The notes under the pieces: generated by a model
Told to the model about the DNA's origin: nothing
Database searches by the model: none
The model's input: only the letters and a program-made list of their open reading frames with translations
Shown: in pieces, positions 12,870 through 43,960 of the stretch
How the letters are laid out: each line of letters begins with the position of its first letter
How positions within the stretch are numbered: the first letter of the stretch is position 1
Assembly (NCBI GenBank): GCA_050084515.1
Contig: CM114271.1
Coordinates: forward strand, 14,136,001-14,200,000
DNA: 64,000 nucleotides
Direction: 5' to 3'
From: Blasia pusilla
Lineage: Eukaryota
Program-made: the position numbers and the translations under genes

Positions 12870-12909
12870 AAACATCTGTGTTCAAAGAGGATATTCCGTT
12901 TAGGGAGGA

Positions 12910-13192: not shown

Positions 13193-13906
13193 GATCGATG
13201 AAAAGGTCTAATATGGAGCCGTTGGAGATATATTATACCGCATGGGAATCTGATTCTTTCAATATAACGGTTCACCTTTACGCAATCCAGACTTTCTACC
13301 TCACATTCTACTCCTATGATGTAGAATTGTCTCCGAATAATTCTCCGAACGAGGGCTGGGACTGCAACAGAATGATCAGCCCGCAGGAGCTCCTGTCGGT
13401 GTTCAATGCTCATCAGACATTTGATATTCGAAATCCCACGTTCGAGTTCAGCAAGTATGACTCAAGCAGTTCTCTTCCATCGCTGCTCAATGCATTGGAA
13501 GTGTTTGGAGAGTTCGAGGCCCTGATGCAGAGGACGAATTCTCTCCACAGTGAGGATATAATCCAAGTCTCGTTTGATCTACATATTAGCTAGTTGAGAG
13601 TGAATGTTTCCAGAATTTCCAAACATGCAGATGGCGTCAATCTACTTTTTGAGTCGTAAGCTAACATCGGCTGATGGACATAACTAAAGTTCGGTCTCAT
13701 AGTTGTACACATCTTCATAAAATGATCGGATTGACTCACAAGCTTGTCTGTGGGCATACGGCATATACAGATGAAGCCATCATCAATTTTTCCTCAAAAA
13801 TCGGAAACATTTCGCAAGGTTTGGATACAATTGGTGACCCTTGTCTACTAGTTCCATGGAACTGGCTCGTTTGCACCATTAAAGTACCACCACGAATAAA
13901 GCAAAT
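13193..13906 (+). pseudogene. Malectin-like-domain (LRR-I type) receptor-like kinase fragment, two exons (~13193-13549, 13771-13906)
   Basis: SLPSLLNALEVF, then AI...GDPCLLVPWNWLVC..PPRIKQ, typical of the malectin-like/LRR junction. GT-AG intron 13550-13770 is in phase and there is a GTAAGT donor at 13907. No LRR or kinase exons were recognised downstream. Confidence 0.7.
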
Positions 13907-14439
13907 GTAAGTTGAATCTAAGTCTAAGTTAAAATTTACTACTATTTTACATGGCACCGAAAATAAAAAAGGGTTTGAACTAGTGACATGGCACATCACT
14001 CCTAGGCACTCTCCAATAATAATACTTAAGTAATAATAACTTAAACTAGCTCCCAAACTGTTAAGACCTCTCGAGGGGCCGAAGTTAAGATGGCATTCTC
14101 AAGATGACACCCAAAATAGTAATTGGTGTCATCATCATACTCTTAACCGGGCTAACCGATTAAGATGCTCCCAGTGAACGCCACTTGTGTATTTTTTTTT
14201 CCGATATACTAAGCTAAGATTTGAATAGAAAAGAGTTGTTTTTTAAATGATTATTCATTTTTAAGATAGATTTAAATTAAAAATATAATCTCAAAAATAA
14301 ATTAATTTTTTTCATACTCAATTTATTTTTCCATTTTCTAAATTTAAATTATTATTTCAAAATTTAGTAAAAAATTAAAACTTTTAATTTCAAGTTAATT
14401 TTGGAAGGGATATTACATATTACTTTAGAAACATGTCAT

Positions 14440-14466
14440 ACTAGTAACGTGCTTGTGCGATGCACA
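14440..14466 (-). mobile_element. Helitron-like 3' terminus
   Basis: Minus strand reads TGTGC-ATC-GCACA hairpin, 9-nt spacer, then CTAG|T. Confidence 0.55.
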
Positions 14467-14698
14467 TAATATAAATAAATTTTTAAGAGTTGGTGTATAT
14501 AAATTCAAAAAAATTTCTTGTTGCCCGTAGCATGTGAAATATTTTCTTGCTGCCTAGTTGCCACGTATCAAGCAGAGAGGTGTTCGCAAATCAAGAAGGC
14601 ACTCTCCCATAATAATATAGATGTGAGAGGAAAAAGAAGGATGACCATGCATAGTTTTTCCCTCTCAATTTATGAGACACTCATTATGAGAGGGTTCA

Positions 14699-14810
14699 CA
14701 AGTTTATCCTTCGTAGTCATTTTGGGTAGATACGTCCACATGCAAGTGCCAAAAATCATGAGTTTATCCTTCGTAGTCGTTCTAAGTAGGTACAAACGCA
14801 TGGAAGCGCC
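14699..14810 (+). repeat. ~60-bp tandem duplication
   Basis: AGTTTATCCTTCGTAGTC at 14701 and 14761 with similar continuations. Confidence 0.8.
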
Positions 14811-15361
14811 GTAAGGACCGTACGAATTCTTATTTATTAGTCGCTCCTTTCCCAGACGATAGTTTTGTTTTTCGGGGAATAGTGCCAAACCCCTGGAGGG
14901 AGAATACATAGCATTGATTGCCATTGATTGCTCTATCGTGACCCATGAGCACCCCCGGGTCGGAAATGGGCCCATTGGCCGTGCCAAAATAGGGGAGAAT
15001 GCAAAAAAAATTCCCGGCGCCTCTTTCCCGTCCGCCCCCTTTGCTATTAGTTGGGTTCAGATATCCGCACCACTTGGGGGTTATTTCATGCCCATGGTAT
15101 GGCATGAATTTTTTGGATCCCATGGCCTACCCATCGGCATAGATAGCAAGGCCATGTGGAATTTGAAATTCAAATTTTGAGCATATAAGCGGAGCCGAGG
15201 GTGGCCCAGGCAAGCAAAGTGCAAGGGGATCCTGGGTGCGGAGGCTGGACTAGAGCTGCGCGGAGCTCTATTCAAGTTGTTGCACATTTGCACAGAGTCC
15301 TTCTTGTGAGCTAGGTTCCATCGTTCCATCGAGCTTTCTTTGTGTGAGTAATCTCCACCAA

Positions 15362-16080
15362 CACTAAAACAAATTGCATATTATATGACTATAATAAATG
15401 ACTAGGTTGAGTCATTGTTCACGGTAAATGACTCACGATGACTCATAACCATTAGAGTCATATAAACCAAGTCATATACAGGATATGACTCTCACTACCA
15501 CATTGGTAAATGATTGAAGTCATTAGCTACTCAGTCATTGATATATGACTAAGATGTCAAGTGTGAGAGACACGTCAGAATGCCATGTTGGCGTATGACA
15601 TGGCAAGTAGAAATGATGTGGCAAAGTGAGCATCAAATGAGATATTGCCACGTGTCAAACTTGGGATTGCTAGATTGTTTAGGCTCAATGAGACGATAAC
15701 ATATGTAATGATATGAACAAATAACAGAGTGACACGTGATTGAAATGACTGAGCCATATGTCTTGACTGAATCACACATACCAAGCACGTAATTTCCTAC
15801 GACTATATGAGTCATAAAATATGACTAGATTGGTTCTCAATTACGACTATTTTGGTCACTCTATGTGTGTTACGGTATTTCATAACTAACTGAGACATTT
15901 TATTGATGGTTTGAGTCATTTATCTCATGTCATTCATGATTGTACGAGTCATATTTCCTAACCATTTGAGTCATTGCGTTAAATGTATGAGTTATTATCA
16001 TGACTTGATCAGTCACTTTTACGACTAAATGATATTTTGGCCGTCTAAGTTATTTGATATACTGCATTAGTCATTCACAC
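15362..16080. repeat. CACTA left TIR and subterminal repeat array
   Basis: Dozens of direct and inverted TGACT(C)/(G)AGTCA motifs immediately after CACTA. Confidence 0.85.
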
Positions 16081-18164
16081 AATCCTATTAGTTGTGGTTT
16101 ATTACTAGATCATGTATTGTTCACAATTTTCCATTGCTCCTCTTGGTGATTGTTAAATGGAGGAGTTACTTTAGTAAGTAAGTGGTGGTCATCTAAGTAA
16201 CATAATCCTCTTAACATAATTAGAGACTCTCTCAGATTCAGCCAGGAGTAATGTGTGAAAACAAGTAGCGTAGACAATGGTAAGGATAGACAAAATCTGA
16301 ATCTTAAGGGCTAGAAGAGGGACATATATCAACCAAGTAATTCTAGGGTACATGCCAATTACAATGAATACTGAAAACTACAAATACATCATAATCAAAC
16401 CATTCTCTAATTAATGAAACCCAAAAATAGATTATTCATTCTATAGAAGAATTAAAGTATTTACATCTCAACAAGCTGCAAGAAGGAACCAAGAGCATAT
16501 GGAAACCAAACTACAAACGAATGATCTGATGGAATCATTGTGAAAGTTTAAACATTTCTGAAATCACCAAATCTAGATATCCTAATGAACTAGCTTTTTA
16601 AGATTCAAATGTCAAGGAAAAAAGTGAAAGCCTGACTATTTTACCCTCTACTTCTTGCTGTTTAGTACTTTCGGATCACACTCTGACTCACTACCCACAC
16701 TTGCAACCATCTTGGTGGTTGCCTTCATCTTCTTCTTGATCTTTGGTGAAGCTTGTATGTCCATTATTACTTCACCTGTAGAACATTCAACTTCAAAAAG
16801 ATTAATATATGGAACACTATTATCAATTGAGAAAATTCTCACTTGCACCACTCATAAACACGGAAGTTTATTGAATTAGTTGTTGCTATCATACATGCAG
16901 TTTGCTCCCATTCTTGAGATGTACTTCAACATTCCTAGCTCTCAGAAAGTGCCAATAGAATAATAAAAACATGGATTAGAAAGAAAATAGAGTTGAGATA
17001 TGCACCCTGGGATATTGTAGTAGTCACAAATTTAGCTTTGTTACTACTGTTTATAAGGTGAGTATGATCAATCTTCTCTTTACCTACACAAGAGCAACAG
17101 AAAAATGCCAATAAATTTTGGTATGGTCTTAGTGAGGTGAGTGAGTAATCACTCACCATATCCAACTTGAAATTTTCATTGCTGAATATGGAATAGAGGT
17201 ATGGAGAAATTGGAAAATGTAGGTACAAAATGTGGGAGATTCTTGAGTGTTACCATTGATCATTACTCTTGAAGAGCTCTTGTTCAACACCTGGCTCACC
17301 GGATCAGCATTGTGGAATTTCAGATTTACATTGCACATCATTGTATAGTTATGGTACACCTACATTAAAAATTTACAGACAACTTGCAAAGAGAATTTAA
17401 GTGATTAAACCTACAAGAAGATATGTCAAAGATTTTCACCTATCAAATTAGTCCTATCTTCAAAGCCAACATTCATGTGAGGCTTTGTCCTCCTTTTCTT
17501 AGGGGACTTTTTAGCCTGAACAAGGTTCTCAACATTGTCTGTAAGCTCATGCGATTCTCGATGACGCCTTGCACAAGCCATACATAGAAGCAATTAGATC
17601 ATGATATGGAAATGAGAAAAAGTGATCATAATTTAGAGTGCCTTAATGAAACCTAACTGGACTTATATAAGAAAAAGAACTTACTTTTCAGGGTTGATAG
17701 CTTTCTACAAGTGCATAATCAATTGACACATTGGATGTTCTTTCTTTTCCACTTTGAGCTAATTTTAAGACCATGCGCAAAAGTACACTCAACTTCTCCT
17801 CAAGAAGTTGGTGACTCGCCTGAAGATCATTCCATTTATTTTGTTGCTCCCTCTGGCCATTTTCAATTTGGGATATCATATCACGTAGACCTTCATCCAA
17901 TCTAGTCTCCACCTCATTCATGTGGGAAATGAGATATGATTCGACTCCTTGTCAAGCATAACAGATAAATAATACAAGCTGTCAATGATTTCTATGACAA
18001 ATTTCCTTCATTTTCCTTTCTATCCATGACCACTACACCAACCAAATTTAAAAACTTTTGTGTAAGTTACCCGTGAAGCCCTACTAAAATCTGTACTAGT
18101 AGGGTGTGATGATGGAATCTCTTCTCTTGCTGTTCCATGAGCAGAAATCTCTCTTTTTGGAACC

Positions 18165-18641
18165 TGTCACATCTGAGTAGCCGATAGGTCGAGATCTATC
18201 GTGGATAGGGCGTAGGAGCCAGCGGACTATCTTGAGTGTAACTTTGTCCCCCGGTGTCGGATGAGGTTGAGGATAGGTCCATTGTGTCAGGAACGTCGTT
18301 TCTGACAACTTTCATGTTGAGGTCTTTTACAGTCAGGTGACTTGTTGACTAGGTCACCGCCCCAGTACTGTGTGCGCAAGAGTTACCAAGGAAGGGCTAT
18401 TTTTAGGGGAAGAGCGTTTTGGCTCTTCCCAACCCTATATAAGAGAGGAAGATGGCTTTCCTAAGCCATCTTTCTCATGTTGGGCCGTTGAAGCACCTCC
18501 CTTGTATGTGTGTGAGCTAGGACTAGGGTGCTAGCGTCCGGATTCCGTGATAGCACAGGGTGGACGAGGCTCGATATGTCGATGTAGATTGAAGAGTGGA
18601 GTTTTAGGCCGAGTGTGCCATTTTTACTACTCTTTATTTTT
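18165..18641 (+). repeat. Terminal repeat A1 of copy 2, containing TATATAA (18436-18442)
   Basis: Highly similar to 27440-27920; differences are mostly transitions. Confidence 0.95.
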
Positions 18642-18655
18642 ACATGAGAAAGATG
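18642..18655 (+). promoter_or_regulatory. Putative self-priming primer-binding site (copy 2)
   Basis: ACATGAGAAAGATG immediately 3' of A1 is the exact reverse complement of CATCTTTCTCATGT (18467-18480), which starts ~31 nt after the start of the TATA box. Confidence 0.75.
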
Positions 18656-19827
18656 TCAGAGGGCTGGTGGGAATTTGTTGTTTGCATGTAGGCAAGCGAG
18701 TCGCCTTGGTCGGGAGCCCCTGAAGACGTGTGTGTGACGTTTTGTGTGTCATTTTTTTGTTCGGAAGGCCGTGGGCGGAAGCGCTGTCTGTTTTTCTCAG
18801 ATTTTGCTGGTGCGGATTGATGGGGACAGCAGCAGGGTGTAGCGCAGGTTGTATCGGCAGGAGTAACGTCGTCTTATAACGCGTGGAATGTCGGGAGTAC
18901 CCAGGGAGAAGAGTTAGAGCTTGCAGCCGCCAGGGGGCTGTCAAGTAAAGGGCGGGTAGGTTAGGTCGCGAAGGCTAGAAGCGCATGCAGGCGACAGCGC
19001 AGACGAGCAGACGGCAGACGGCTAACAAAGTAGGGCGCGGACAGCAGAGCCCCCTCTCTCCGTGGTAAACGTGGTAGACGGACCATAGTCGGTCGGGCTG
19101 TTGTAGCATACATGGTTGGCAGGACGGACGAGGTTAGTCCGGCAAATGTGAGTTGAGATTTGCCGGACATGCTTGGGAGCCGACCAGGGTGAGTCACGTT
19201 ACATGCCGCGCGTGGGGATTGATAGAGGGGTTTGCGCGACATGATGTTTTGGGGCGCGACAAGGCGTTGCGAGAGTTGACGATGGAGGGGCAGTGTGCAT
19301 GATGCCGACGGGTGGTCCGCATCTGTTGACGGGAGGATCGACGTGTTGGTCGAGGGGAGTGTTGTGTTGCGGAGATTTTCATCTCATGAGGAGGAGTGCA
19401 TGTTGACAGTGCAGCAGGTTGGAGGGCGTGATCAGGTTACCCATTCGAGTCCCTTTTCCCGCACTTGTCGTGTGTGATTGAGAGTGCTGGTGCTAGATGG
19501 GTGCAGTGATGGTGACGAGTGTAGATTCTTTTCATGTGTAGCATGTTGGTGGATATACGGCGGTTGTCGAGTAGGGGTCGCGTGTATGACCCGAGAGAGT
19601 GTCGCTAGGTTAGGTGATTCAGTTGGGAGGCTCATGGTGAGCCCGAGTGTTGAGCGTGCGTGAGGCCGGGTATGTCATCACGGGATTGATGTTAGCATAG
19701 GTGAGCTAGTGAGGCGTGTGGGAGACTCTCGGTGAGTCTAAGTGCTTGAGCTGGTGAGACAGGGTTTGTCATCATTGCGTTCTTCCAGGGTTCGGAAGAA
19801 CGGGGTAGTACGAGCAGTAGTAGTGGT

Positions 19828-22260
19828 GTGACACGGAGTGGAGTGAGATACCAAGGGGTTACCAGTGAGGAGCTCCCTCAACATCCATCCGTGACTGGAT
19901 CGTCATCACTGGACACTGGGTCTGGTGACAAGATCACCGACAGAGACAAAAGTACTTGGCAGGAGATGGACGACATGGGCCATCGGGGCATGCGTCGTTT
20001 CTCGGGTGCAGTGGGCACCATCGACTTAGATGATTTCATCCAGGAGTTCGACACATGGTGCGACTTCCAGGAGATACGGACCCCGACACGGTTCAACCCT
20101 TTCATGGCATGGAAGGGGTTGTTCCTGTACTTGGAGGGTCCTCCGATGGATGACTTTATGGAGTTTCGATCACTTTATTCAGTAGAGATCGATGCTTGGA
20201 GGATGTATTGGGCTCCAGGGTATGTGTCCACTAGTGGTCGCGAGGCATATGATGGGATTGTGAGAGGAGAGAGACCCACACCATCAGCCCGGAGACTAGA
20301 TGGAGAGGAGGGCAGTGAGACAGGCGATGTGGCAGAGACTTCTAGTGGTAGAGGGCCACCCAGCTTCAGCCCCACAGTGGAGTTCTTCCGAAAGTTGGGG
20401 AAGAGCTACCAGGGCGTACGCACCGACAAGCTGAAGAGTCTACACGATTTTCAGCGACGATCGAGTGAGAGTCTGAGAGAGGCATTCACACGCATGAGGA
20501 GGCTGATCATTGCTACGTTTGGAGTGACTGAGGCGCAGTCGACCCAAAGATTGGTACTGGGTTCGGACCGAGAACTACGGAGGAGAGTCCGAGATGCGGT
20601 GCTGATTCACACAGCGAAGCCCACATTGAAGGTGGTCTTTGAGTTGTCTGAGCATATTGAGCTCAACATGAGTGAGGAGCATGTAGTGACCGCTGGATTT
20701 TCTCGAGAGTCGACGGGTCCATGAGCGACGGTGACCCCACAGGTGCCACAGCGGGCATCAGTACCACGGGAGCGGGCCAATATGCCTAGAGAGCGGGGGG
20801 GTACCGTGTGAGCCTATGAGGCAACAACCCGCACCTACATATGTTGCCCAAAGACGGACCGATGTGGTCTTGTTGGGCGTGTGGAGGGGCCCATAGGCGA
20901 GAGAGCGCCCACGGCATGGGAGAGGACCACCAGCGCCCACGATTGCTCAGAAGCCACAGAGGATGGCCCCACCCACACACCGGTGTGACCATTGCCCACG
21001 AGATATGGTCACACTAGGGATAGATGTTTTGACCTTCGCCGAGGGGCACGCGTCGAGGTAGGCCGAGGGCCTGGGGCGTGCGTCTGGAGGAGGTCGGGAG
21101 TTCTTCTTGGGCGTGGTGGTAGAGGACCACCACCAGCCAGGAGGAGATGGAGCAGAGCACGAGCCGGCACTTCTCTCACGATCGATCACTTGAGTAGAGG
21201 ATTGCTTTGCCATGACGATGATGCGGCTTAGGAAGGCACGAGTGCGGCGGCTAGTGTGACTCGATTTCTACCTCTTACCCGACCCGGGTGAGGATCTCTC
21301 CAGTATGGGATTCATGTGTAGTGCAGCCCAGGTTGAGGCAGATGCAGTGGAGACTCGTGGTGCTGCGAGAGGCACCGAGCCAATCGAGAGGTGGAGTTGA
21401 GATTGACCCACCAGAGGGGACCGATGGGCGGCAGGCCAGGGTTCCACAGTCGTTCACATTGTCGGAGGCACTACACACACCATCGATGGTGCCTAGACGA
21501 CCAGCGGTGCCTATAGTTCAGGCACCTACGTCGACGTCACGAGGAGTTGGAGTGACAACTCCTATGCCGGCTCGAGTGGAGTCAGTGTTGACCATAGTGT
21601 TGGAGGTGGCCACTAGAGTGAGTCAGACTCCGCTATTTTCCGCCATAGAGTTGGCGACGTTGGGAGTTGGACTAGCTGAGGTGTTCTGGTTGGCCGCCAT
21701 GTTGTGTGAGTGTGGAGAGATGAGTGCTTCTTGTTCAGAGGTAGTTGAGGAGGTGGTGGACTTGCCCTCAGAGCCGGTGCTGGGGACGTTCCCCACAGAG
21801 TCATGGCATGCGGCGGCGGCGAAGTTGGTAGATATGCCAGCTTGACCGGCCATAGAGCGAGCAGGGGTGACACCTGGAGTAGTGTTACTGGATAACCGAG
21901 GTGGAGTATTTCGCTTGTTTAGTCCAACGGAGACGGTATACCACCCCCAGCGCGTCCTACTTGATTCAGGAGCGCAACCCTTGACGTTAGGGAAGGCGGC
22001 GTGTTTAGCGTTGGGGTTACGGAAGGCCGACATTGAGCCTTGTCCCTTCCAGATACAGACCTCGATTGGGGGCGTATCACCCACTCAGTATATGACTCAA
22101 CAAGAGATTGTTGTCAGAGTCCAGCCAGAGCATGCGACAAATAGTGCTATGGTGCGCATACGTGCGATTACGACACCACCGAGTCGCATGCGGCGTGTTG
22201 GTGGGGAGAGTCTGATGTTATATTCCTAGATTCATCCTTGACTTCTAGGAGGAGACCGTT
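19828..22260 (+). pseudogene. gag and protease of copy 2
   Basis: 298-aa gag ORF (FSGAVGTIDLDDFIQEFDTWC, FQRRSSESLREAFTR), CWAC..H..C and CDHC..YGHTRDRC knuckles, protease RVLLDSGAQP (~21955). Confidence 0.88.
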
Positions 22261-22680
22261 GCTTATCGGCCAAGATGGCGGTCGGTGTGCCGGATGAGTC
22301 GATTACGGTCGCGATTTGCGGGACGAGGTGGTCGATCACGAGGCGAGTCTGTGACCACGTAGGCAGCTTTCACAGGTAATGTTAGCTGACCAGGAGAGTT
22401 GTTGGAGGGGAACCCACATGTGGAGGATGTCCCAGCAGCGGATAGTCCCACGGAGAGACAGGCCATGGCGGGTGTCTCTTCCCATGTTGGCGAGGCCTCT
22501 TCACCATTGTGGGGTACGACTCGGGAGCTATAGAGGAGTGTCGACGACCTCGTGAGGCAATCGTGGAGTCATGTTTTTATCCCAGAGCAGCGAGAGTCAC
22601 GTGGCGCTCGGGCTCTTGGAGTGGAGACGATGACCCCACTAGATACCACACCTGTTGTGTGGTAGTGCCCAGAGGAGGGT

Positions 22681-23615
22681 GTTAGATCTCTCCGGAGGGA
22701 TTAGCACCGGATTGGCTGCACTATTGCCGGTGGGCATACGGGTGCATCAGTACCTTTATGTGGAGAGAGATGAGACCGCACGGCGAATATCATTACGTCA
22801 CGTGGCGAGATTGGTCTAGAGGTATCCTGAGTTGTTGCCGGTATCTGCAGTACGGGGATATCAGCATACGCTACCCGCCGATATCTCTTTGGTGGGGGTG
22901 CAGGATCTGGATAGAGTTGGCACCATTCATTTGGTGATTGCTGGATGGCCATGTTAGGGTCATTCATCAGCTGACTGAGGATTTGGATTGCAGGATCCGA
23001 GGTTAGGGATGTTTTGGGAGATGCTGCGAGTATTACGACACTTGAAGGAGAGCCAGATATGTTCTCCAACGTACATTTTGGAGAACGTGCCATTGTTAGG
23101 AGACACTCGTGCACGTGTGATGACGAGTGTACATCAGGTGAGGTCCAGGTTGGGACCTGCAATGTTGTTAGATGCAGCGAGAGTTGGGTCACGTGCCTAT
23201 CGTCCACGACTGTGGTGGGAACGAACCTGATACCATCAGAGGTACTGAGTCGAGCATACGGTGGAGTCCAAAGAGCACCACATCTCACCGTGGATGCTAT
23301 TTTGGGCTCAGAGCATCGATCTCAGGTGGTGACACGGGATGATAGACCACCGTTGGCCATGGCCAATAGGGTGGGGGAGTTGAGGGCAGCCTTACCTATG
23401 TTGGTGAGCTTCCCAACATCCCATGCCTTTCGTCAAGGAGGGCTAGGCATGATTTGGGATGAGGTGACCGGAGCATTGGAGGAACCTACAGCAGATGAGC
23501 GCGAGCGCGCCATGGGGTTCACTATGGTACTACGGCGGTGCCGAGGGGATGACCGAGGCATCACGGAGACAGTGTTGGGGCGGCGATGGACCTCAACTGT
23601 CTCACATGGATAGTC
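22681..23615 (+). pseudogene. C5-cytosine DNA methyltransferase domain inside Gypsy pol (copy 2)
   Basis: LDLSGGISTGLAALL (I), QYLYVERD (II), DISLVG (III), IHLVIAGWPC(stop)GHS (IV; TAG at 22955 where CAG is expected), GLQDPRLGMFWEMLRVL (V), YILENVP (VI), LDAARVGSRAYRPRLWW (VIII), EEPTADERERAMGF (IX), LG.AMD (X). Confidence 0.92.
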
Positions 23616-24049
23616 ACCTAGGTATGGCTGAGCGGCATACGGATGCAAGTGTCATCCATGCCGTCACGCCCACGAAGTTGGACCATTGCCTCTGAGTGAG
23701 TGCAGACACGCATTGGTGGGGCGAGACGAGGAGAGATAGGCACCCATGGACTTCTGGGACGTCGTTCGAGCGAGAGAGTGCGAAGGCGGCTAGAGTAGCA
23801 CATGTTCATTTTTCGGATATGGAGCATGGTGTAGGAGGGAGGGGAGTGGAGTGGTCATTTATGAGGTGGCTAGGGTTGCTACATAGCAACCAAAGCCGGA
23901 GGTTGCGTCCTCTCCGAGTGAGGTCACGATGGAGACTTGGGAGCCTGTGATAGGTCTCAAGTTGATAGGAGGAGAGCGACGGCGAGTTCATAGTTTTTAC
24001 GAGAGGGCATGTCGGTTGTTTTGCCTTGATATGAGAGACTTGGATCGTT

Positions 24050-27000
24050 GAAGGGTCCCGGATACGGATTGAGTTGGCTAGTGATACGCCGATCTTTCGT
24101 CGACCCTCTGGTATTCTGATATGGAGCGAGCCTTGATTGAGCGGGAGTCGGGACTTGTTGGAGGCGGGACTTATGGAGTTATCACATGGGGAGTATGCAT
24201 CGCCCACAGTCATGCCGGCAAAGAAGGATATGTATGGCAATTGGACGGATAGGCGGATGTGTGGTGATTACCGTCCTATCAACCGACAGACGAGGTCAGA
24301 TCGGTATGCCATGCCTACTCCTGAGGAGATCTTTGATGCGGTAGGGCATGCAAAGATCTTCAGTACTTTAGATCTCCATGTTGGCTATCATCAGCTTCCT
24401 ATCAGGTTGGAGGACAGGGAGAAGACAGCATTTTGGGGGATAGATTGGTTCGGGAGAGATTACTTGTATCAGTGGCGGTTCTTACCATTTGGGTTGGAGA
24501 ACGCGCCTGCAGAGTTTCAGAGAGTGATAGATAGGATTCTGGCTGGCTTGGATTTTGTACGATGTTACATAGATGATATTCTTATCTTCAGTTCCACGGT
24601 TGAGGAGCATGAGCGACACTTGGAGGAGGTACCTTGAAATTGGTGGTTGGTGGGATATTTATGTTACCATCAAAAAACGTTTTCTTGATCTTGAAAATTA
24701 CCTCCTTGTTTGACATGTGGCAATTGGACAGATAAAAATGTTTTCTATCTTACGGACATCAAGAAAATGTCTCCCCCTTTTGCGCCATTTTGTGTGTAAC
24801 ATGATTAATCTCTTCACTCTGCGCATGGCACGGGTATGGTAAGTGGGAGGTGTTTCGGCAATTGCAGTTACATGGACTGAAGTTACATCCAGGCAAGTGC
24901 AGATTCTTTCAGGAGCAGATTGAGTACTTGGGACACACCATATACCCGAGTGGGTTAGGCGCTCAGCAGACAAAGGTAGAGGCTATTGCATAGATTCCAC
25001 GCCCTACAGATGTGAGTCGAGTCCGAGCATTTCTTGGACTGGCAAACTTCTATCGACGGTATGTCAAGGGTTTTAGTGCGATCGCAAAGTCTTTGACCTT
25101 GTTGACGAGACTTGATCAGTTTTGGTTGTGGGGAGATGATCAAGAGCGAGCATTTCAGGAGCTCAAGGACAAGTTGACGACCTCACCCATTTTACAGAGA
25201 CCGGTTAGAGGTCGCCCATTCCACTTACATACGGATTTGAGCATGTTGGGTCTAGGAGCAGTGCTTACTCAGAGGGATGACGAGGAGAGGGAGTTCGTTG
25301 TGGCTTACGCGAGCCGATCGAACAACATTGCAGAGGCAAAGTACAGCTCCTACGAGGGAGAGTGCTTGGCTGCAGTGTGGGCCGTGGGGCGTGGCACATT
25401 TGAGGTGCTATTTATTCGGCAACCCTTTCACACTTATCACTGATCATCAGCCGTTGAGGTGGTTGATGGAGTCCGACAAGCTTACGGGAAAGCTTGCCAG
25501 GTGGGCTCTATTACTACAGGAGTATGAGTTTGAGGTGGTTCATAGGCCAGGTCGGCTGAACCAGGATGCGGATGGGTTGAGTCGTAACCCATGTCTGAGT
25601 AGAGAGACGACACAGGAGCTCAATGGCACGGAGAGAGTGATGAGGAGATGGTGCCCGGTTGGCATGCATCTGCCTATCTTTGTTGGTTGACTATGGCGGA
25701 GTCACCCACGGTGATGACTCGGTGGTGGGATTGGATGATGAGTCTTTGGATCCGAAGGTTAGTGAGGAGGCGGCAGGTGGTCGTGATATCCATGACGACG
25801 TGGAGGTTGTGGAGTTCTTTTGACCTTGGCGTCATTGCGAGAGTACAAAGTGAGTGCTAGGGAGCGGATCGGATCCTCTGAGAGCCAAGAGGTTTAGGTG
25901 GGAGGGGACTCACATTTTGCGGGTATGGGGAGATGGTAGGATACGAGTGGTACCTCATCCTTCCCAGCGAGGGCGTGTAGTGCGACATGCCCATGAGGAG
26001 TTGGGACATTTCAAGTAAAGCGTTTACGACTTACTCGATTCAGTATTGGTGGCGCGGCATGCATCCGATCAGCGATTTGTGGCGGATGTATGGTATGTGA
26101 CAGAGAGTGCGAGCATCCTTCAATGCTCCCACTCTCAGATTACATCCTTTTCCGATTATGGGTTTAGGTTATCGGTGGAGTTTAGACTTTGCGGGACCTT
26201 TGCCATTGTGATGCGTCATCATAGGTGCGTGTTGGTCATGGTGGAGCATTTCTCCAAGTGGATAGAGTTGGTGGCACTACCAGACAAGGCGAGCGAGGGA
26301 ACAGCTTATGCGTTTCTAGATCGTGTGCTTAGTCATTTTGGTGCACCGGCGGAGGTGTTGACTGACCAGGGTACCGAGTTCAGGGGAGAGTTTCAGGCCT
26401 TATGTGATCAGGCACTGATAGATCATCGCACCATGTCCAGAGATCATCCTGAGGCGGATGGGTTGGCGGAGAGAGTGGTACAGACGGTGAAGAGAGGATT
26501 GCGCAAGTATGGCTTGCAGCGGGGACAGTTGAGGGAGTGGGACCTACAGTTGCCATGGTTGGCTATGGGTTATCGCTTTAGTCGGCAGGCATCCTTGGCA
26601 TCATTTTCACCGTAATTTTTGCTCTTTGGGAGAGAGCTAGATTTACCTGCAGCCATTCGACGTTACATGGCGGAGGTGTTAGATCTTGATGATCCAGATG
26701 TGTGGGTACAAGCATGTTCTCAGAGGGTAGAAGTTTTTCGTAGAGTTATGCCTATGGCCTTTGAGAACTTAGCTATTGCCAAAGATAGAGATACATTGAG
26801 GTCGCGACCATTCGTGGAGGAGGTTATCGTCCGAGGATTAGGAGGTTTCATCCTGGAGATTACGTGTATTTACAAAGCAGCGGCACCCATGACGCTAGAT
26901 TTCATCAGGCAGGCGCACGGTCCCCCACGTGTGCGCGAGGTATTACCGACCGGAGTCCTCATGTTGGAGGGATGGGATGGTATGGTTTGGAAGGATCATG

Positions 27001-27220
27001 TGCGCAATTGTGCGCTATGTCATCTTCCGAACGTAGATGGGATGGTGGATCCGAGCTTGGCAGTGGTACCTACAGGCTTGAGGTGTATGTTGTGCGGATC
27101 TGCGAGGGGTGCAGCCACCATGTTGGTATGTGATGGTTGTTCTCGAGGGTGGCATATGTCATGTCTGACCCCCCTCTTGATGTGGTTCCCACCGGATGAT
27201 GGATGTGTCCGAGATGTGTA
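24050..27220 (+). pseudogene. RT-RNase H-DDE integrase-PHD of copy 2
   Basis: RMCGDYRPIN, FSTLDL..GYHQ, PFGL.NAPAEFQR, YIDD (24566-24577), FLGLANFYRR, LHTD, TDHQPL, integrase core VEHFSKW..LTDQGTEF..HPEADGLAER, PHD from 27084. Confidence 0.95.
24631..24845. other. 215-bp AT-richer insertion within the RT of copy 2, flanked by a GGAGGT direct repeat
   Basis: Copy 1 reads GAGGAGGTGTTT contiguously; copy 2 has GGAGGT at 24625-24630 and 24846-24851 around extra sequence. Confidence 0.8.
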
Positions 27221-27300
27221 TAGGGTAGTAGGTCATGTCAGAGAGATGTGATATTTTCTATCTAGAGTTGGGTGGATCCAACTGCCAGCTAGGGGGGCGT

Positions 27301-28058
27301 TTGTGTGATCTCCATGTATATGTATGAGTTGATTTTTGTACATGTGTGGATCGACCCGTGTGTGGGGAAGATCGGTGTTGTGTGGTGTAGATGTGACCAG
27401 CGATGTATGTTGTGTAGCGATATGTATGCGCATGACAGCTGTCACATCTGAGTAGCCGATAGGTCGAGATCTATCGTGGATAGGGCGTAGGAGCCAGCGG
27501 ACTATCTTGAGTGTAACTTTGTCCCACGGTGTCGGATGAGGTTGAGGATAGGTCCATTATGTCAGGAACGTCGTTTCTGACAACTTTCATGTTGAGGTCT
27601 TTTACAGTCAGGTGACTTGTTGACCAGGTCACCCGCCCCTGGTAACCTGTGCGCACAGGTTACCAAGGGAAGGGCTATTTTTAGGGGAAGAGCCTTTTGT
27701 GCTCTTCCCAACCCTATATAAGAGAGGAAGATGGCTTTCATAAGCCATCTTTCTCATGTTGGGCCGTTGGAGCACCTCCCTTGTATGTGTGTGAGCTAGG
27801 ACTAGGGTGCTAGCATCCGGATTCCTTGATAGCATAGGCTGGACGAGGCTCAATATGCCGATGTAGATTGAGGAGTGGAGTTTTAGGCCGGGTGTGCCGT
27901 TTTTACTACTCTTTATTTTTGTTGTGTGATCTCCATGTATATGTATGAGTTGATTTTTGTACATGTGTGGATCGACCCGTGTGTGGGGAAGATCGGTGTT
28001 GTGTGGTGTAGATGTGACCAGCGATGTATGTTGTGTAGCGATATGTATGCGCACAACA
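27301..28058 (+). repeat. B1-GC-A2-B2 composite 3' terminus of copy 2
   Basis: 137-bp B at 27301-27437 and 27922-28058; palindrome TGACAGCTGTCA (27433-27444) at the B1/A2 junction. Confidence 0.95.
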
Positions 28059-31000
28059 AACCCCCTAAAATACATCCCACATTGTAAGTGTCATTATGCA
28101 AACATTTGAAATCAGAAACAAGTACAAGTTTAGTATATAAGCTTCTGGGAATTCCTAAATTGATAGAGTAGATACCAAAAGAAGAACCTATCAATTTGAA
28201 GCTATATTTTTACAATTGAAAGTTAAAGCTCGTTCTAAGGGCTTACCGAAAAACCGTCTATGCCTGATCGGTCGTTGTTGTTCAAAGTCTGAACATGTGA
28301 CCGAGATTTTGTCATTTGCTCGGCCTTAAATTTCCCTGATTCTGACATCCAATAGTCGACCATTCGTTCCCACTATAGGAGAAAGAAAGAGAGAGAGGAT
28401 TGAAGAATCTTTGAGTTTTCAAGAAAGAGTTGCACTGAGATGGTCAAGACAGAAGTTTGAAGCTTCCCCGATAACGTAAAATTTCAGGAGGATATACTTC
28501 CAAGTGTTTCGCATTCTATGCGGCTCATGAACTCAGTGGTCAATGCTTATCCCTCAAGGCGACAGTGGAAATAATGTAGCTCACATTCAAAGACCGATTG
28601 CCTAATGGAGTGATTCGTGATGATGCTGATCTGAATGGAGAGTACAAGTAGAAGTGACTGAATCCGTAAAAGTGAAATTGACCTAAACTCCGCGAGCTTA
28701 GAAATAGCAAACATGAAAAACGTATCAAGTAACTAGTCTTTCAGGCGAACGGGAGGGAAAACTTGCAAGAATGTAAGCAAATAAATGTGACCAGCACCAG
28801 TGAACCCACTGCTCACACTAAATAATTATCTTGGCCTAGACAAGTACTCACATACAAAGCGTATTTCCTATTGTTGTCCCCCAGAAATCTGAGTTAGACG
28901 GACTAATTGTGATTTGACGAGCGGCAAACAATCAATGCCAACTGATTTCTGGCCTTAACGTGAACCTATTCCTCACCAAATAACACAGCTAAGAAAGAAA
29001 TATTCAAGTCACAGTTGGAGTGTTGCATACTCGAGGATGCCCGAGAGGATTAAGAAAATGATACTCTTATTCTATACTTGGATTTTTCTGGGGCTTGATA
29101 ACTTTTGATTCGTCGTCCATAAAAAGAACCGTGCTCATGGAATATATCATCCAAAAACACTTTTTTGAGAATGCCCACCAATGGAGATAGTCCATTTCAT
29201 GCTTTCCTCCACAGAACCGCCCCTCATTTCTTTCCATTCTGTGCTTCTCATCTTCAAACGCGCGCGAATAAAGGCTTGTACAGGTCTTCCGGGCAACTGC
29301 AAGAATAGAATCTAATCAGCTTATCCTAGTTGGATGAAGAATTCGGTGCATTTTGTACACAGGGCGAAGAAGCTCCGTATTAGGGCCCATGATTTGACGA
29401 CATCTCTGAAATTAAACACATCATAATCATACGTCGTCGATTGCTTAAGCGCCATGAGACGGTGGAAGTTACTTGGTTTTAAGATAAAAGCTATCTACCC
29501 ATTGTGGAAAAGGTCCGTGCTGGAAAAAGCTCACTTTGATGCTCATAATCAGTTCAATCCTTACAAATCGGTTTAGTTTGATTAGTTGGAGTCGAGTGGG
29601 CCAGTTCGTTGATCAACTTTTGTCACTAGGTCTTGGAAACCTACGTATCTCAACGTGGAAATCTAGTTTCATCGTGAATAGTGATATACAATCTGCAAAC
29701 CACTTCAATAGTTTAGGGGAAGACCAACTTAGTCATTCACAGATATATTCAAGCTCACAGCGCGGCGGTCAGCTGGGATTTTGCAAGGTGATGGACTATC
29801 GTGATATCTGGAACTCTAGATACTCGTTAACAAGCTGACCAGAAGCGTAGGTTTGGGGATCCAGAGCTTCTACTAACAGGAATGTTTGCACAATTCAACT
29901 ACGTGAGACTCATTCGGAAAACTGAACAGATATCTAATGATAGTACCTAAGCGACATCATCTAGATCTTTGCGTGGAAGATCAACGAGTCCGTCACGACT
30001 ATCAAGTTATAGACAGATTTCATCTCCACCTTTAAGGTCAGATTTTTGATAGATCCTGACTGGTTTTGTTACGACCACATGACTAATCAGCTTTCCCGAA
30101 ATGTAAGTTTGGGGATCAAAAAAAGAACCCCACGATGCAATTAGTGTCGATCATCCACTTACACAAAAATCTTGTGATCTTCTAGAAGTCCATATGCTAA
30201 AAACACTATTGGGAAAAAGACTCTCGGTACCATATTGACACTAGAGAATCCCTTGCCCAACGCGACGCAGCCCTCTAGGGACCGATATCGTAGAATCTTG
30301 CCCCTATAATCACCTAGCATTTTCATGTAGCATCTCAACTCGCGCGCAAGAAGTAACTCAACTCTGAGAGCGCACATTGAAAGAGTCCGCAATTGACCTC
30401 CAAGTTGGTGGAGCATCTACAAGAAATGTAGTCGCATGTGATTGCGCATATCATGTAGGAAATGGGCAAAAACATGGTTATGGTGCGTCCGGAAGGGTCC
30501 TATGTTCGTGGGTGTTGGGTTAAAATACTAGAGCGGCAGCGTCCGAGGACTTGGTAGAGAGACAGAGAGAGAGAGATTGTGTCCAGACCGATTTGGAGCT
30601 CGACCTATGGAGCGGCTTCCAAAATTTTCAATGTCAGTTTCATAACAGCCCAATTCAAATTGCACCTCACATGTGCGCGAGTCTTCCTCTCCCGCGCGCT
30701 TTTGCCTCTCTTCGCGCTCTTGCTCAACCTCGATGCTCTTGCCTCTCTTCGCGTTCTTGCCCAACGTCGACGCTCTTGCCTCTCTTCGACGTCTCTTAGA
30801 TCGTTCACACTCTCTCTCTCTCTCTCTCCCGCTTTAGTGCATCTCCAGCTCCTTGAGATCCCTCTCGTGTCCATGCATCAAAACCCTAACAAAAGAAATA
30901 AGAAAATAAAATACAAGAAAAAGAGAGCACTTGAACAAGATAACAGCGTAGGTCTTCAACCCAGTACCTCGCTTGCGGCCATGGAGACCCGGAATCAAAA

Positions 31001-31481
31001 CTGAATTGGGGCGCTTGCAAATTAAAACTTTAAGGTTCCAACTTTCTTTTTAAACCTAGTGACTAGCGATCACCGTAAGAGCGTAAAAGGGGGGTCATTT
31101 GTTTAGTTCTAATTTCAAAGTTATTACTTTTTATAGATTTTGGATTTTTAAAAAAATTTATTGGTAAGATATTTGAGATCTATCTTATGTAGCATCACTA
31201 TAATTATTGAGTTTTATTCTCCATGCCCAAAACAATTAATTAATGCTCATAATTTTCCCTTTTTTTAATGAAATTTCAAAATTCAAATCAATATTTATAT
31301 ATTAATCTTCTCCAAATTAATTTTGTTCCATAATTATGTGTGAATATGACTTGCAAATGACCAAATCATTTGTGTTACTATTTGAGTAATTGATTTATGA
31401 CTATTTCGGTTTTCGATGTCATATTAAATGATTGGACCCATTGAGTCATACTTTAAGTCATTAATTTATCACTATTTCTGT

Positions 31482-32790
31482 TTCTTGATTCTACTATTTG
31501 TGGCGAATGTATGTGCTTGCCTTTATGGACTCATTGCGACCCCTTTGTCTTGCTCTTCATGTTGGTTCTCCCTTGAGGCCGTCCACCATTGTTGATCGTA
31601 TTGGTGCAATTTCTGTATTGCGGAGCGTTGCGAGAATGCCTTCCAATGTAATCAATTGAGCGAACGTCATTGATTCATTCACTTGCATGCTAATCTTCCA
31701 GAATCGAGGTAGAGACGTCTGTCAAGAAAATGTGATAGCTATATATATAGAATAAATATTTCAATATATAGGGGTTGAGGATGATCAATGGTAGAGGCTG
31801 AATCAACAACTATGTGTGTCATCAATGTGTCCTCTAAAGTATTTCTTGATTCTACTATTTGTGGTGAATGTATGTGCTTGCCTTTATGGACTTATTGCGA
31901 GCCCTTTGTCTTGCTCTTCATGTTGGTTCCCCCTTGAGGCCGTCCACCGTTGTAGATCGTATTGGCGCAATTTCTTTGATAGGGAGTGATGCCAGAATGC
32001 CTTCTGATCTAATGAGCTGAGTGAACTCCATTGATTCATTGGCCAACATCCTAATCTTCCAAAGTTGGGGTAGAGATGTGTGTCAAGAAAATGTGACAGT
32101 TGTATATATAGAATATATATTCAATATGTAGGGGTTGAGGATTATCAACCCACATGCATGAGTTTCTAATAGCAATTTGCTAATTCTGTCATTTTTTCAG
32201 GGCAAGTGATTGAAATGCATACACTCGATAGTGTGAGTAGTGGTTTGATATTGTTATATTGCCTAAAAGCATTGAGTTTAGTTCATATTTTTGTACTTGT
32301 GGAGTTGTTGGCTATTTTTAAATGCCTCAATGGTCGAGGCTGAATGAAGAGTTCTGTGTGTCATCAATGTGCCCTCTAAATCATTTCTTGATTCTACTAT
32401 TTATGGTGAATCTATGTGCTTGCCTTTTTGGACTCACTGCAACCCCTTTGTCTTGCTTTCTATGTTGGTTCCCCCCTTGGGACGTTCGGTATTCCAAATC
32501 ATAATGGAACAATTTATCTTTTGTCTAGCGATGCTAGAATGTTTGCCGATGGATTGCCTTCATTGAGCAGCATGTTGAAATTGGAGAATCCGGTTGAAGA
32601 CTTTTATCTAAGAATGTGACAATTATAGAAAGTTGAAGAGAATGTATAGTTAAATATCTAGGTGTTGAGACCCTCAACCCCTCTATTGCGAGGGGTTGAG
32701 ATTCATCAACCCTCGTGCATGAGTTTGTAATATAATGACTTGCTTGGTTGTCATTTATGGAGCAAAAGTTAGTGAAATGCATGTACTTAT
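31482..32790 (+). repeat. Three diverged tandem copies of a ~350-450-bp unit
   Basis: TTCTTGATTCTACTATTT(G/A)TGG..AAT.TATGTGCTTGCCTTT at ~31482, ~31843 and ~32385, each followed by GGGGTTGAG..T.ATCAA. Confidence 0.9.
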
Positions 32791-40668: not shown

Positions 40669-41080
40669 ATGGTGGCAGCTCACACATCAGATTGGGATAG
40701 GAAATTAGCTTCAGCTGTCCATGCTTACAACACAGCTGAGAAGAGCACCACAGGGAAAAGTCCCTACTTCTTGGTGTATGGGCATAACCCTCTCTCGGTA
40801 GTAGAGTTGGAGTTGAAGACTGATCATACTCTAGAAGGGCACTTCCAACCTAAAGGTGGCATAGATAGCACGTTGGATATGATTGATGCCCTAGAGGAGG
40901 AGAGAAAGGCAGCATTAGAGAAGACCAAGGCCGTTTCAAAGCAACAAAGGAAGATGAGGTTTGATAACCGAATACTGCATGATCCAGTGAAGGAGGGGAC
41001 ATGGTGCTGATGTATGATAGTCGACCCCAAAAGTTTCCAAGAAAGCTACACATTCGACTGCTTAGGCCTTATCAGGTGAG
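40669..41080 (+). pseudogene. Gypsy integrase C-terminal remnant (unrelated family)
   Basis: DWDRKLASAVHAYNTAEKSTTGKSPYFLVYG, then KL....L.PYQV (GPY/F-like). Confidence 0.8.
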
Positions 41081-41515
41081 GAGCAGCAGGGAAGTAATGA
41101 GGAGGTGAGGAGCAGCAGGGAAGTAATGAGATCAGGTGAGGAGCTGAGGAGCAGCAGGGAAGTAATGAGATCAGGTGAGATCAGGTGAGGAGCAGCAGGG
41201 AAGTAATGAGGAGGTGAGGAGGAGCAGGGAAGTAATGAGATCAGGTGAGGAGCAGCAAGGAAGTAATGAGGAGGTGAGGAGGAGCAGGGAAGTAATGAGA
41301 TCAGGTGAGGAGCAGCAGGGAAGTAATGAGATCAGGTGAGATCAGGTGAGGAGCAGCAAGGAAGTAATGAGATCAGGTGAGATCAGGTGAGGAGCTGAGG
41401 AGCAGCAAGGAAGTAATGAGATCAGGTGAGATCAGGTGAGGAGCAGCATGGAAGTAATGAGGAGCTGAGGAGCAGCAGGGAAGTAATGAGATCAGGTGAG
41501 ATCAGGTGAGGAGCA
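41071..41515 (+). repeat. Purine-rich minisatellite, ~28-51-bp variant units
   Basis: Core (ATCAGGTGAG)n-GAGCAGCAGGGAAGTAATGAG repeated about 12 times with modular variants. Confidence 0.95.
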
Positions 41516-43089
41516 TCCAAGGGAAGCTCGAACCAGCTTGAGAAGAAGCAAGCTTGGGAAATGCTAGTTAGAACAGGTTCAGAAGTAGATGAGGTCGAAA
41601 TTTCAGGCAGTAGATGCTTAGGGGGAGGTAGATTTGTAGGAAGGTAGGAACCCAGAATGCGAGAGAAACCCAAGGAAGAAGTCTGGTAAGTGATAAGAGT
41701 TAGTGAGTGGAGAGAGAGAGAGGGTCATGCTTGAGCTCCCCTATAGGTAGAAGACCATGGGCTTAGCCTGTTAAGTCTCCTACTACCTGAACAAGAAGGG
41801 AGAACAGCGGATCAGCAAGGTAGGAGGAGAAGAAGAAGGTGATTGCACTACTTGATCAGTTAGGAGTTGGGTGTACTTTAGAGGATGCCTTGGTACATTC
41901 AACTAGTCCAAGGCAGCACATTGAAGGACCTTATGCTGCCCTGGTCATCCTTGACTGTGAATTCTAAGTAGAGTGTGCTTGTTGGGTTCCACTGGCCACT
42001 CCACTCAAAGCACTCAAGAGGAAGGAAGGAGTTTTGGTTAGTAGGGTGAGGATAGGATTGTGATACTGAAGTGGAGAGAGTTCCTCCAGCCTCTTAAGGT
42101 AAAGAGGTGGGGTTTGATGAGTTAAGGAGTACATCTTGTAGATCTTGATCTTCTGATCTGGCCCTAAGCTCTTACATGCGACCGAACTGGTGGAACTAGC
42201 AACATTTTCACCTGGGTTGTGTGCTGGCCATGTATTACCTGGTGAGACAGAAGGTATCTTCCCCATTAGAAAAAATTGGAGGTTCAACCCCAACTGGTCT
42301 ATGTCTTTCCTTTTTTTATTACATCCTGATTGGTATGATTTTCATGCAGACTAAACATTGCAATTATGGTCTTTGACACCATTAGTTCAAGACTAACTCT
42401 CAAAATGTGCAGATTCCATCCTTGTGGAGCACTTTCATGGAAATGATATTCCTCCGGGAATAGTGCGAGTGGAACTCAAGACTGTCCATCTTGCTTTTTT
42501 GGATCATAAGTTGTGGAAGCCAAATGAGCATGACTTTCCACCTCAATACACCTTGGGTGATGCTCTTGGGGCTTCAATTCTCTAACCTAAAATGAACTTG
42601 AAGAAAGTTGTACATTAGAGCATCCCTCTAGTCGTAGATATGGTTCGGTTAGTAATACTTGCTGATGTTTTGTTTCGGATACAATTTTGACAGTGTACCA
42701 ACACTAGAATTTAGTCTACATGAAGTTATCTTTGTGATATAAAATGGGCCATTTTTTTAATCATTTCTATATGCATGCCCTTGCATTTCTATCTAGCTAT
42801 GTTTCTCACTTCTTCCCAATGTTTGAGATGATATCATGTCCCTACTCACTCCTCGCCTCACTCTCTTTCAATCTGAAACTTGTTAGTAGGAGTAGAACTA
42901 GCTAATAAATAGAAAGTATTCTCTGTTAGATTTTCTTTCTTGTCTTTCTTCATTCAAGGTTGTAAGCTTGAGACAGGGAAGGGTTTTGTATATGGGGCAT
43001 CATATCCTATTTGAATGCCATACCTCAAGTATCTTCCCCTAATCTCCTGGAGATAATGAACATCAAATAATGTAAAGTTGTCATACACT

Positions 43090-43882: not shown

Positions 43883-43960
43883 CTACGTGTCACAAAGAGA
43901 ACCAAGTTTTGAAATGTGCAGGTCTCAACCTATGGATCCAAGACTTGCAGTGGAGGAAGG

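Follow-up and report, generated by a model that had tools for sequence, protein, structure and literature searches.

How does a retrotransposon that codes for a DDE integrase come to carry split direct repeats, the arrangement that is used as a diagnostic of tyrosine-recombinase retroelements? We address this question in a stretch of 64,000 nucleotides from Blasia pusilla (contig CM114271.1 of assembly GCA_050084515.1, positions 14,136,001 to 14,200,000, forward strand), referred to here as the window. An earlier note, made from the letters of this window alone, had described two elements that start with a repeat A and end with a polypurine tract (PPT) followed by the repeats B-A-B, and had proposed that they integrate through a circle. 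Our preferred reading, which we consider probable, is that these elements belong to a streptophyte Ty3/Gypsy clade in which the integrase site lies inside the long terminal repeat (LTR), and that joined-LTR DNA is opened at this site, giving the order A-int-B-A-B (int, internal region).

Self-comparison of the window revealed three related elements, all on the + strand (Table 1). In all three the 5′ end consists of A alone, and the 3′ end is B-A-B in two copies and B in one. The block at 27291-28058, which had first drawn attention, is the G-run of the copy 2 PPT followed by B1-A2-B2. The tips read TGTCAC...ACRACA in 3/3 window copies, each of which is flanked by an exact target-site duplication (TSD) of 4 bp; the chance of such an exact match is 1/256 per element.

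To these boundaries we added contigs of four public runs, placed on window positions 11000-28300. Two contigs of run X2 (another sample with the same organism label) connect 18160 to 28059, omitting 9898 bases with 4 shared letters. The skipped bases amount to the 9894-bp copy 2 plus one TSD, and these contigs therefore represent an empty site. It is either allelic, in which case the insertion of a fairly old copy is polymorphic, or paralogous, reflecting an uninterrupted copy of the flank. Copy 1, in turn, splits a copia RVT_2 domain, with profile positions 1-135 plus 28 residues in its left flank and positions 167-242 in its right flank. Because of these two boundary checks, B2 can be assigned to the inserted DNA and is neither an assembly artefact nor flank. 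The A|B joint is also present in contigs of other runs, including run X6 (another organism label), whose contigs are ~95% identical and one of which crosses the A2|B2 joint; this, too, speaks against an origin of the second B in assembly. The copia-type element that copy 1 interrupts (rve, SH3_retrovirus, RVT_2) lies at 485-2185 and 11919-12513 and is frameshifted near 2100.

Word depth in run X1 was 7,000-340,000 over the elements versus ~100-600 in nearby low-copy flank, and sense-strand RNA reads over the elements were found in run X20. Some X1 contigs (11782 to 11070) join the end of A and a few bases of the primer-binding site (PBS) to the final 64 nt upstream of the PPT. They represent non-autonomous derivatives of the copy 1 family with internal deletions.

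Table 1. Coordinates of the features of the three elements; positions are those of the window, except in the last row, where they are those of the metagenome loci named.
Feature	Position	Strand	Details
Copy 1	2186-11914	+	diverged family; order A-int-PPT-B-A-B
Copy 1 A1	2186-2697	+	PBS from 2698
Copy 1 PPT	11134-11146	+	
Copy 1 B1	11147-11274	+	
Copy 1 A2	ends 11786	+	
Copy 1 B2	11787-11914	+	
Copy 1 TSD TCTT	2182-2185 and 11915-11918		exact 4 bp
Copy 2	18165-28058	+	9894 bp; A1-int-PPT-B1-A2-B2
Copy 2 left TSD AACC	18161-18164	+	4 letters fit both sides in the X2 empty-site contigs
Copy 2 right TSD AACC	28059-28062	+	
Copy 2 repeat A1	18165-18641	+	starts TGTCAC; TATATAAG at 18436; primer-site complement at 18467-18480
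Copy 2 PBS ACATGAGAAAGATG	18642-18655	+	exact reverse complement of 18467-18480 (14 nt)
Copy 2 C5 DNA methyltransferase	22673-23600	+	PF00145, E 6.4e-5, just above the curated cut-off; frameshifted, in-frame stops
Copy 2 reverse transcriptase and Gypsy-type RNase H	24137-25687	+	RVT_1 1.8e-20, RT_RNaseH_2 3.2e-28, RT_RNaseH 1.5e-13; broken by frameshifts
Copy 2 DDE integrase core rve	26019-26612	+	PF00665, E 4.5e-12
Copy 2 PHD finger	27084-27173	+	PF00628, 3.6e-6; C-terminal end of pol
Copy 2 PPT AGCTAGGGGGGCG	27287-27299	+	
Copy 2 repeat B1	27301-27437	+	U3 start of the LTR defined by reverse transcription; ends TGACA
Copy 2 LTR-internal junction TGACA-GC-TGTCA	27433-27444	+	3′ tip, 2 nt, 5′ tip; proposed integrase cut site
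Copy 2 GC spacer	27438-27439	+	between B1 and A2
Copy 2 repeat A2	27440-27921	+	TATATAAG at 27715; primer-site complement from 27746
Copy 2 repeat B2	27922-28058	+	ends CAACA
Copy 3	43961-49628	+	internally deleted relative of copy 2; A-int-PPT-B
Copy 3 A	43961-44452	+	
Copy 3 PPT	49486-49498	+	
Copy 3 B	~49500-49628	+	
Copy 3 TSD AAGG	43957-43960 and 49629-49632		exact 4 bp
CTAGGGGGG motif	L016 829, L017 642, L026 9980, L043 9980, L052 688, L053 6547, L054 1163		

The internal regions of copies 1 and 2 are only ~75-77% identical, so that copy 1 represents a different family from copy 2; copy 3 is 77-79% identical to copy 2. Within copy 1, the repeats are 97.1% (A1/A2) and 97.6% (B1/B2) identical. 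Within copy 2, A1 and A2 are 94.8% identical over 483 columns (25 differences), and 27301-27432 of B1 is identical to 27922-28053 of B2 at 132/132 aligned bases, where equal decay would predict ~7 differences. This identity of B1 and B2 may come from gene conversion or from polishing of the assembly.

The position of the signals for reverse transcription sets the limits of the LTR. The PPT AGCTAGGGGGGCG is conserved across the three window copies and the metagenome loci described below, and B begins 1-3 nt after its G-run in every copy. In all window copies and loci, the PPT lies directly before B1 and the PBS directly after A1. Therefore B marks the start of U3 and the last base of A the end of U5, and it follows that the LTR as defined by reverse transcriptase (RT) is B+A and that the complementary DNA (cDNA) should read BA-int-BA. 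The integrated copies, flanked by their 4-bp duplication, run from the first base of A (TGT) to the last base of B (ACA), with their tips at the B|A boundary inside this B+A LTR. The earlier note had claimed A-only starts, PPT-B-A-B ends, TG..CA tips and exact TSDs for copies 1 and 2, together with integrated ends inside a B+A LTR. The first set of claims is upheld by the alignment, the TSDs and the empty site, and the second by the adjacency of PPT to B and of A to PBS.

The type of primer site had been overlooked by the earlier note. In copy 2, the PBS is complementary to a stretch inside A1 that starts 31 nt after the TATA box TATATAAG at 18436, and copies 1 and 3 repeat this pattern, each having 1 mismatch in 12. 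In the metagenome family, ACTCAAAGAACT pairs with AGTTCTTTGAGT, 32-33 nt after GTATAAA. Here 0-1 mismatch in 12 was found at 10/17 moss-type loci, the remaining loci being more decayed. In 7 of those 10 the best match to the PBS lies 32-33 nt past a TATA-like motif, and in L019, L023 and L045 it is a second partial complement further downstream in A. Across the three families, the PBS and its complement differ in sequence yet stay complementary (that is, they co-vary), 30-33 nt past a TATA-like motif. A tRNA-type primer site was rejected by eye, as no TGG follows A in any copy. In Tf1/sushi-type elements, the primer site adjoining the 5′ LTR can pair with the start of the transcript of the element itself. 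The self-complementary site and the lack of a tRNA-type TGG make the window elements similar, and the pattern fits self-priming by the 5′ end of the element RNA as in Tf1, with the RNA start placed only by its spacing from the TATA box. The two differ in that the integrated ends of Tf1 are the LTR tips, whereas those of the window elements are internal to the LTR.

To determine the coding capacity, we scanned copy 2 with Pfam profiles, using pieces of open reading frames (ORFs) and then read-through of all six frames (E ≤ 0.1). Besides RT and RNase H, this identified the rve integrase core, with the motifs LTDQGTEF and DGLAER in the rve frame and the first D (SLDFAG) upstream in another frame. 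No tyrosine recombinase (PF00589, Phage_integrase) was found in the six read-through frames, and the three reverse frames gave no Pfam match at this threshold. The claim of a DDE integrase unaccompanied by a tyrosine recombinase thus stands; a C5 DNA methyltransferase (DNMT) and a PHD finger had escaped the earlier note. The DNMT lies between protease and RT in both window families (copies 1 and 2) and is broken in both. In copy 2, motifs I, IV (PC), VI (ENV) and VIII share one frame and ERERAMGF is in another; in copy 1, the DNMT is at ~7300-8200, with motifs seen by eye. The PHD finger lies C-terminal of the integrase region, a place taken in chromoviruses by a chromodomain.

Relatives of these elements confirm this content. 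The DNMT piece matches 38 proteins at E ≤ 1e-5, with named matches in the liverworts Calypogeia fissa and Marchantia polymorpha (identity up to 73%) and in Sphagnum. A near-open metagenome relative, L071, carries in one frame Gag with a CCHC zinc knuckle, protease, DNMT, RT, RNase H, H2C2 and rve. The intact protein P0039 (2358 aa) comprises protease, DNMT, RT, RNase H, H2C2, rve and a C-terminal PHD finger (residues 2300-2344). PF00145 was matched in P0039, P0044 and L071 as well, and relatives were also found in Closterium, with the DNMT, and in Haematococcus, with the PHD finger and no DNMT. The clade thus encodes, in order, Gag-CCHC, protease, C5 DNA methyltransferase, RT, RNase H, H2C2 plus DDE integrase, and a PHD finger. 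The Ty3/Gypsy Pol order of protease, RT, RNase H and integrase is borne out in copy 2, L071 and P0039, with the DNMT inserted between protease and RT. No tyrosine recombinase family was present in L071 (three forward frames), in P0039, P0044 and P0052, or in the precomputed domain lists of the relatives. A scan of viral contigs yielded only two distant DNMTs (28% identity), unrelated to these elements.

To determine how general the end structures are, we scanned JGI metagenome contigs with an alignment of the DNMT matches and retained 80 of 151 matching loci. Before counting, we left out the duplicate loci L005, L024, L050, L053 (3′ end) and L052 (no 5′ end), as well as L074/L076, which a contig end cuts after B-A. 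L060 was merged with L031/L061 as one site, the 5′ end of L048 (first 9 nt replaced) was used for its TSD only, and rows of the PPT-motif scan at the motif upstream of the DNMT and at unrelated sites were removed before 3′ ends were counted. A motif scan found 31 A starts in the loci, 24 of them terminal (21 distinct) and 7 internal, and B precedes 0/21 of the distinct terminal starts. Likewise, 28 B ends were found, 5 internal and 23 terminal (21 distinct). Among the distinct 3′ ends, 15/21 were B-only and 6/21 had A before B, comprising a full B-A-B in L025, L028, L043, L048 and L061 and a rearranged A-B in L049. Exact 4-bp TSDs flanked 8/10 two-ended elements (TGTT, TCTC, TGTG, CATA, TTCA, AATG, CACA, TACA); of the remaining two, L032 has a TSD with 3/4 matching and L053 has none. 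Together with the window copies, exact TSDs were found in 11/13 elements.

The earlier note had predicted that copies would take the forms A-int-BAB, A-int-B and possibly A-B-A-int-B, and never BA-int-BA. The first two forms were found, and no BA-int-BA copy was seen among the window copies and loci; the third form was seen at 0/24 distinct 5′ ends (21 in loci and 3 in the window). One orthologous pair shows how the forms may relate. L031 (B-only) and L060+L061 (B-A-B) share one site, with flanks 95-99% and the element 91% identical, so at least one B-only copy came from a deletion between B1 and B2. L026 (14934-17522) has a DNMT-type element inserted within another PHD-Gypsy element, of an unrelated family, and the 3′ end of the latter reads PPT-B-CATGACA GT TGTCATG-A-B; since this second family shows the same layout, the layout is not limited to one family.

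The 3′ block holds two junctions. At B1|A2, copy 2 has the 3′ tip, two nucleotides and the 5′ tip abutted, and the same layout is found in L025, L028, L043, L048 and L061. We compared eight internal B|A junctions, two from the window and six from loci, and found CA-NN-TG in 6/8 (ACA-NN-TGT, with TAT in L043). The two spacer letters are GC in three, AT in two and AC in one, all derivable from GC by transitions. The tips vary as well, with ATGACA in B1 and ACAACA in B2 of copy 2 and ACGACA in copy 1. CpG decay of ACGACA on either strand gives the first two variants. The other 2/8 internal junctions (copy 1; L074/L076) are damaged exactly at the proposed cut site. In L074 (~6925-6940) and L076 (~15785-15800), a deletion of ~30 bp between TATGAC and CATGAC microhomologies removes the junction. 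Such damage may arise when integrase acts in trans on chromosomal copies and the cuts are then repaired.

At A2|B2, the joint is exactly the U5 end followed by the U3 start in L028, L043, L048 and copy 1, and it is one base off in L061 and copy 2. The joint of L049 retains 9 nt of PBS plus 6 more, and that of L025 has ~20 extra nt with a PPT-like end. Junctions of 2-LTR circles formed by end-joining of linear cDNA are exact joints with occasional remnants of PBS or PPT. The A2|B2 joints resemble these; together with the abutted tips at B1|A2 they give the circle idea new support and make it plausible. In the inserted copies the U5|U3 joint remains uncut, next to an internal site that was used, and these copies would therefore record joined-LTR DNA that was integrated by a DDE integrase.

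We propose the following mechanism. Transcription would be directed by signals in A (the TATA box), and the 5′ end of the RNA would prime its own reverse transcription, which would build the LTR B+A and linear cDNA of the form BA-int-BA. The U5 end of this cDNA would then be linked to its U3 start, giving an A|B joint like that of a 2-LTR circle. At the palindromic ACAGCTGT in the PBS-proximal LTR, the DDE integrase would cut both strands 3′ of CA, and cuts at ACAGCTGT would leave recessed CA-OH ends and 2-nt 5′ overhangs, the geometry of processed retroviral ends. This circularly permuted DNA, now linear, would be inserted with a stagger of 4 bp to give A-int-B-A-B. B-only copies would arise by deletion between B1 and B2, as seen in the orthologous pair above; 1-LTR circles, or linear cDNA cut in both of its LTRs, may be further sources. 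The 3′ R, and with it the ability to replicate again, would be retained by A-int-B-A-B only. Of the earlier proposal of integration through a circle, what has gained support is the structure, with abutted tips at B1|A2 and U5/U3 joints at A2|B2; the 2-LTR circle itself, as the integration substrate, is plausible. We hold more tentatively the stronger claim, which we regard as possible, that integration in this clade proceeds obligatorily through joined-LTR circular cDNA, with the DDE integrase opening a palindrome inside the LTR.

There are partial precedents for such a reaction. According to two reports, the integrases of prototype foamy virus (PFV) and human immunodeficiency virus type 1 (HIV-1) cleave the palindromic LTR-LTR junction of 2-LTR circles (PMC1180852, PMC1905944). 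The likeness lies in a retroviral-type DDE integrase acting on a palindrome of abutted ends and producing processed ends. In the PFV and HIV-1 circles, the palindrome is formed where the LTR tips meet, and there is dispute over the part it plays in integration. In the window elements, by contrast, it belongs permanently to the interior of the LTR and contains a 2-nt spacer, and the A|B joint stays uncut in the inserted copy. The bacterial elements IS3/IS911 and IS30 use rve-fold DDE enzymes, form circles with their ends abutted around a 2-3 bp spacer, and make a short TSD. They share with the window elements a DDE enzyme acting on an abutted-end circle and a short TSD; they differ in being DNA transposons of bacteria that involve no reverse transcription, with a spacer that comes from the donor flank, whereas here it would come from the element's own RNA.

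Several observations weigh against the reading that we prefer. Our observations are of sequence data, and neither a circle nor a cDNA end, a transcription start or a poly(A) site is among them. If a circle carried two identical internal sites, A-B-A-int-B should be produced as well, the form missing from all 24 distinct 5′ ends; faster collapse between the two A repeats could hide it, which is an added assumption. Because B-only ends are the majority (15/21), a circle-free route may be the main one. The internal junction of copy 1 (~11272-11279) reads GGCGGTATCC, with 6/8 bases unlike the expected ACA-NN-TGT in an element whose repeats are 97% alike. Every window copy is broken by stops and frameshifts, and since all are degenerate, activity has to be deduced from relatives and copy number. 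The metagenome loci, finally, come from few related samples and probably represent one or a few bryophyte-like hosts.

Some of these points speak for a route that involves no circle, which we keep as the main rival and judge unlikely on the whole. Here the architecture and the integrase chemistry would be unchanged, and RT, extending the plus strand, would pass by an end-to-end template switch from the U5 end to the U3 start of its own or another cDNA. The product would be linear DNA with ...B-A-B-(A) on the right, and integrase would cut the internal site closest to each DNA end. Such a switch accounts for an extra repeat on the right side only, in agreement with the absence of A-B-A from the 5′ ends, and a still-attached primer explains the PBS remnant in the L049 joint. 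In cycles that lack the switch, the product is A-int-B, the commonest form. Yet integrase would have to cut at least 116 nt from a DNA end and the switch would have to be regular; moreover, blunt end-joining would predict exact U5|U3 joints just as well, and one B-only copy is demonstrably secondary (L031 against L060+L061).

The remaining two explanations place the elements in known classes, and we give very little credence to either. The layout A1-int-B1-A2-B2 is that of PAT, Ngaro and VIPER in the textbooks, where, according to PMC4157794 and PMC8969392, split direct repeats are a hallmark of tyrosine-recombinase elements that make no TSD. The window elements might thus be PAT/Ngaro-like, with a recombinase that was missed or acts in trans and a vestigial rve. 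What they share with PAT/Ngaro/TOC-type elements is the repeat order and, by implication, joined-LTR DNA opened inside one LTR. They differ in carrying an rve DDE integrase, TG...CA tips and 4-bp TSDs in place of a tyrosine recombinase and unduplicated targets (this last as far as those sources describe it). The Phage_integrase profile is absent from the six frames of copy 2 and from the relatives examined. The exact TSDs in 11/13 elements are at odds with DIRS-type elements, which lack TSDs according to the same part of PMC8969392, and the TG...CA tips and the conserved D, D and E motifs fit an integrase. It is just as improbable that these are ordinary LTR elements whose LTR is A (TGT...ACA) and whose B2 is a local duplication or an assembly artefact. 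In favor of this, A1 starts with TGT, ends with CA when read into the first PBS bases, and is immediately followed by the primer site. The TSDs and the empty site, however, set the 3′ boundary after B2 and not after A2, the conserved PPT precedes B1 and not A2, the layout recurs in two window families, 6 metagenome loci and one further family, and the A|B joint is found in other runs. Taking A as the LTR is already contradicted by these data. Set beside the features by which Ty3/Gypsy elements are known, the elements have a short TSD, TG...CA termini, a PBS at the U5 end and a PPT at the U3 start, and in place of the same complete LTR at both ends they have A only at the 5′ end and B-A-B or B at the 3′ end. 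Of the features of the DIRS order they have the split direct repeats, and neither the tyrosine recombinase nor the absence of a TSD.

Returning to the reading in which joined-LTR DNA is opened inside the LTR, we found that the layout has a precedent, and the earlier note was wrong in supposing it not described for Gypsy elements. KnitGypsy-Dnmt3 of the alga Klebsormidium nitens is a Gypsy element with a DNMT3 in Pol (de Mendoza et al. 2018, PMC5890265), and the legend to Fig. 4c of that paper gives it the repeat structure of a DIRS element and domains typical of Gypsy. As far as that description reaches, the pairing of a DNMT in a Gypsy Pol with DIRS-like repeats is the same as in the window elements; the hosts differ, K. 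nitens versus a bryophyte-like host here, and the likeness is one of description. No K. nitens protein is named among the matches of the DNMT piece or of its relatives. The part of PMC5890265 that deals with KnitGypsy-Dnmt3 gives no TSDs, primer type, internal junction or mechanism, and a preprint (10.64898/2026.05.21.726589) mentions streptophyte Gypsy-DNMT3 elements and, in the part available, not their repeats. Our literature search, which lay outside subscription journals, Repbase reports and supplements, returned no description besides PMC5890265. The window elements therefore extend a kind already reported from an alga to a bryophyte-like host. Four aspects appear to be new, namely how the junctions are built, the putative self-priming site, the evidence from TSDs that a DDE enzyme integrates these elements, and the spread of the layout over several families.

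Programs that search for LTR elements expect identical LTRs at both ends, and split direct repeats are taken to indicate a tyrosine recombinase. The present elements break both rules and will therefore be mis-bounded or mis-classified, though they are very abundant in their host. They bear on the old question of whether 2-LTR circles are integration precursors, and those bryophytes that can be grown and transformed would make this question testable. If a circle is obligatory, these elements would represent, in natural and inherited form, the long-disputed pathway of integration at a circle junction. Split repeats of the DIRS order would then follow from the opening of joined-LTR DNA inside one LTR, independent of a tyrosine recombinase. 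A bolder possibility, should this hold, is that such Gypsy lineages resemble the ancestor of the tyrosine-recombinase retroelements. The DNMT and PHD finger, in addition, connect these elements to research on chromatin modules encoded by transposons.

Finally, we noted features that lie apart from the repeats. In 7 loci (Table 1), a PPT-like motif, CTAGGGGGG, precedes the DNMT match by 21 nt; it could be a central, second site of plus-strand priming, or merely coding sequence. Outside the elements, arrays of direct repeats, tandem or dispersed, occupy 41018-41570 and 31481-32663 of the window, with units of ~40-120 nt and ~280-300 nt. An ORF at 55184-56035 encodes the N-terminal domain of a non-haem dioxygenase (DIOX_N, 4.4e-21) and is probably a fragment of a host gene.

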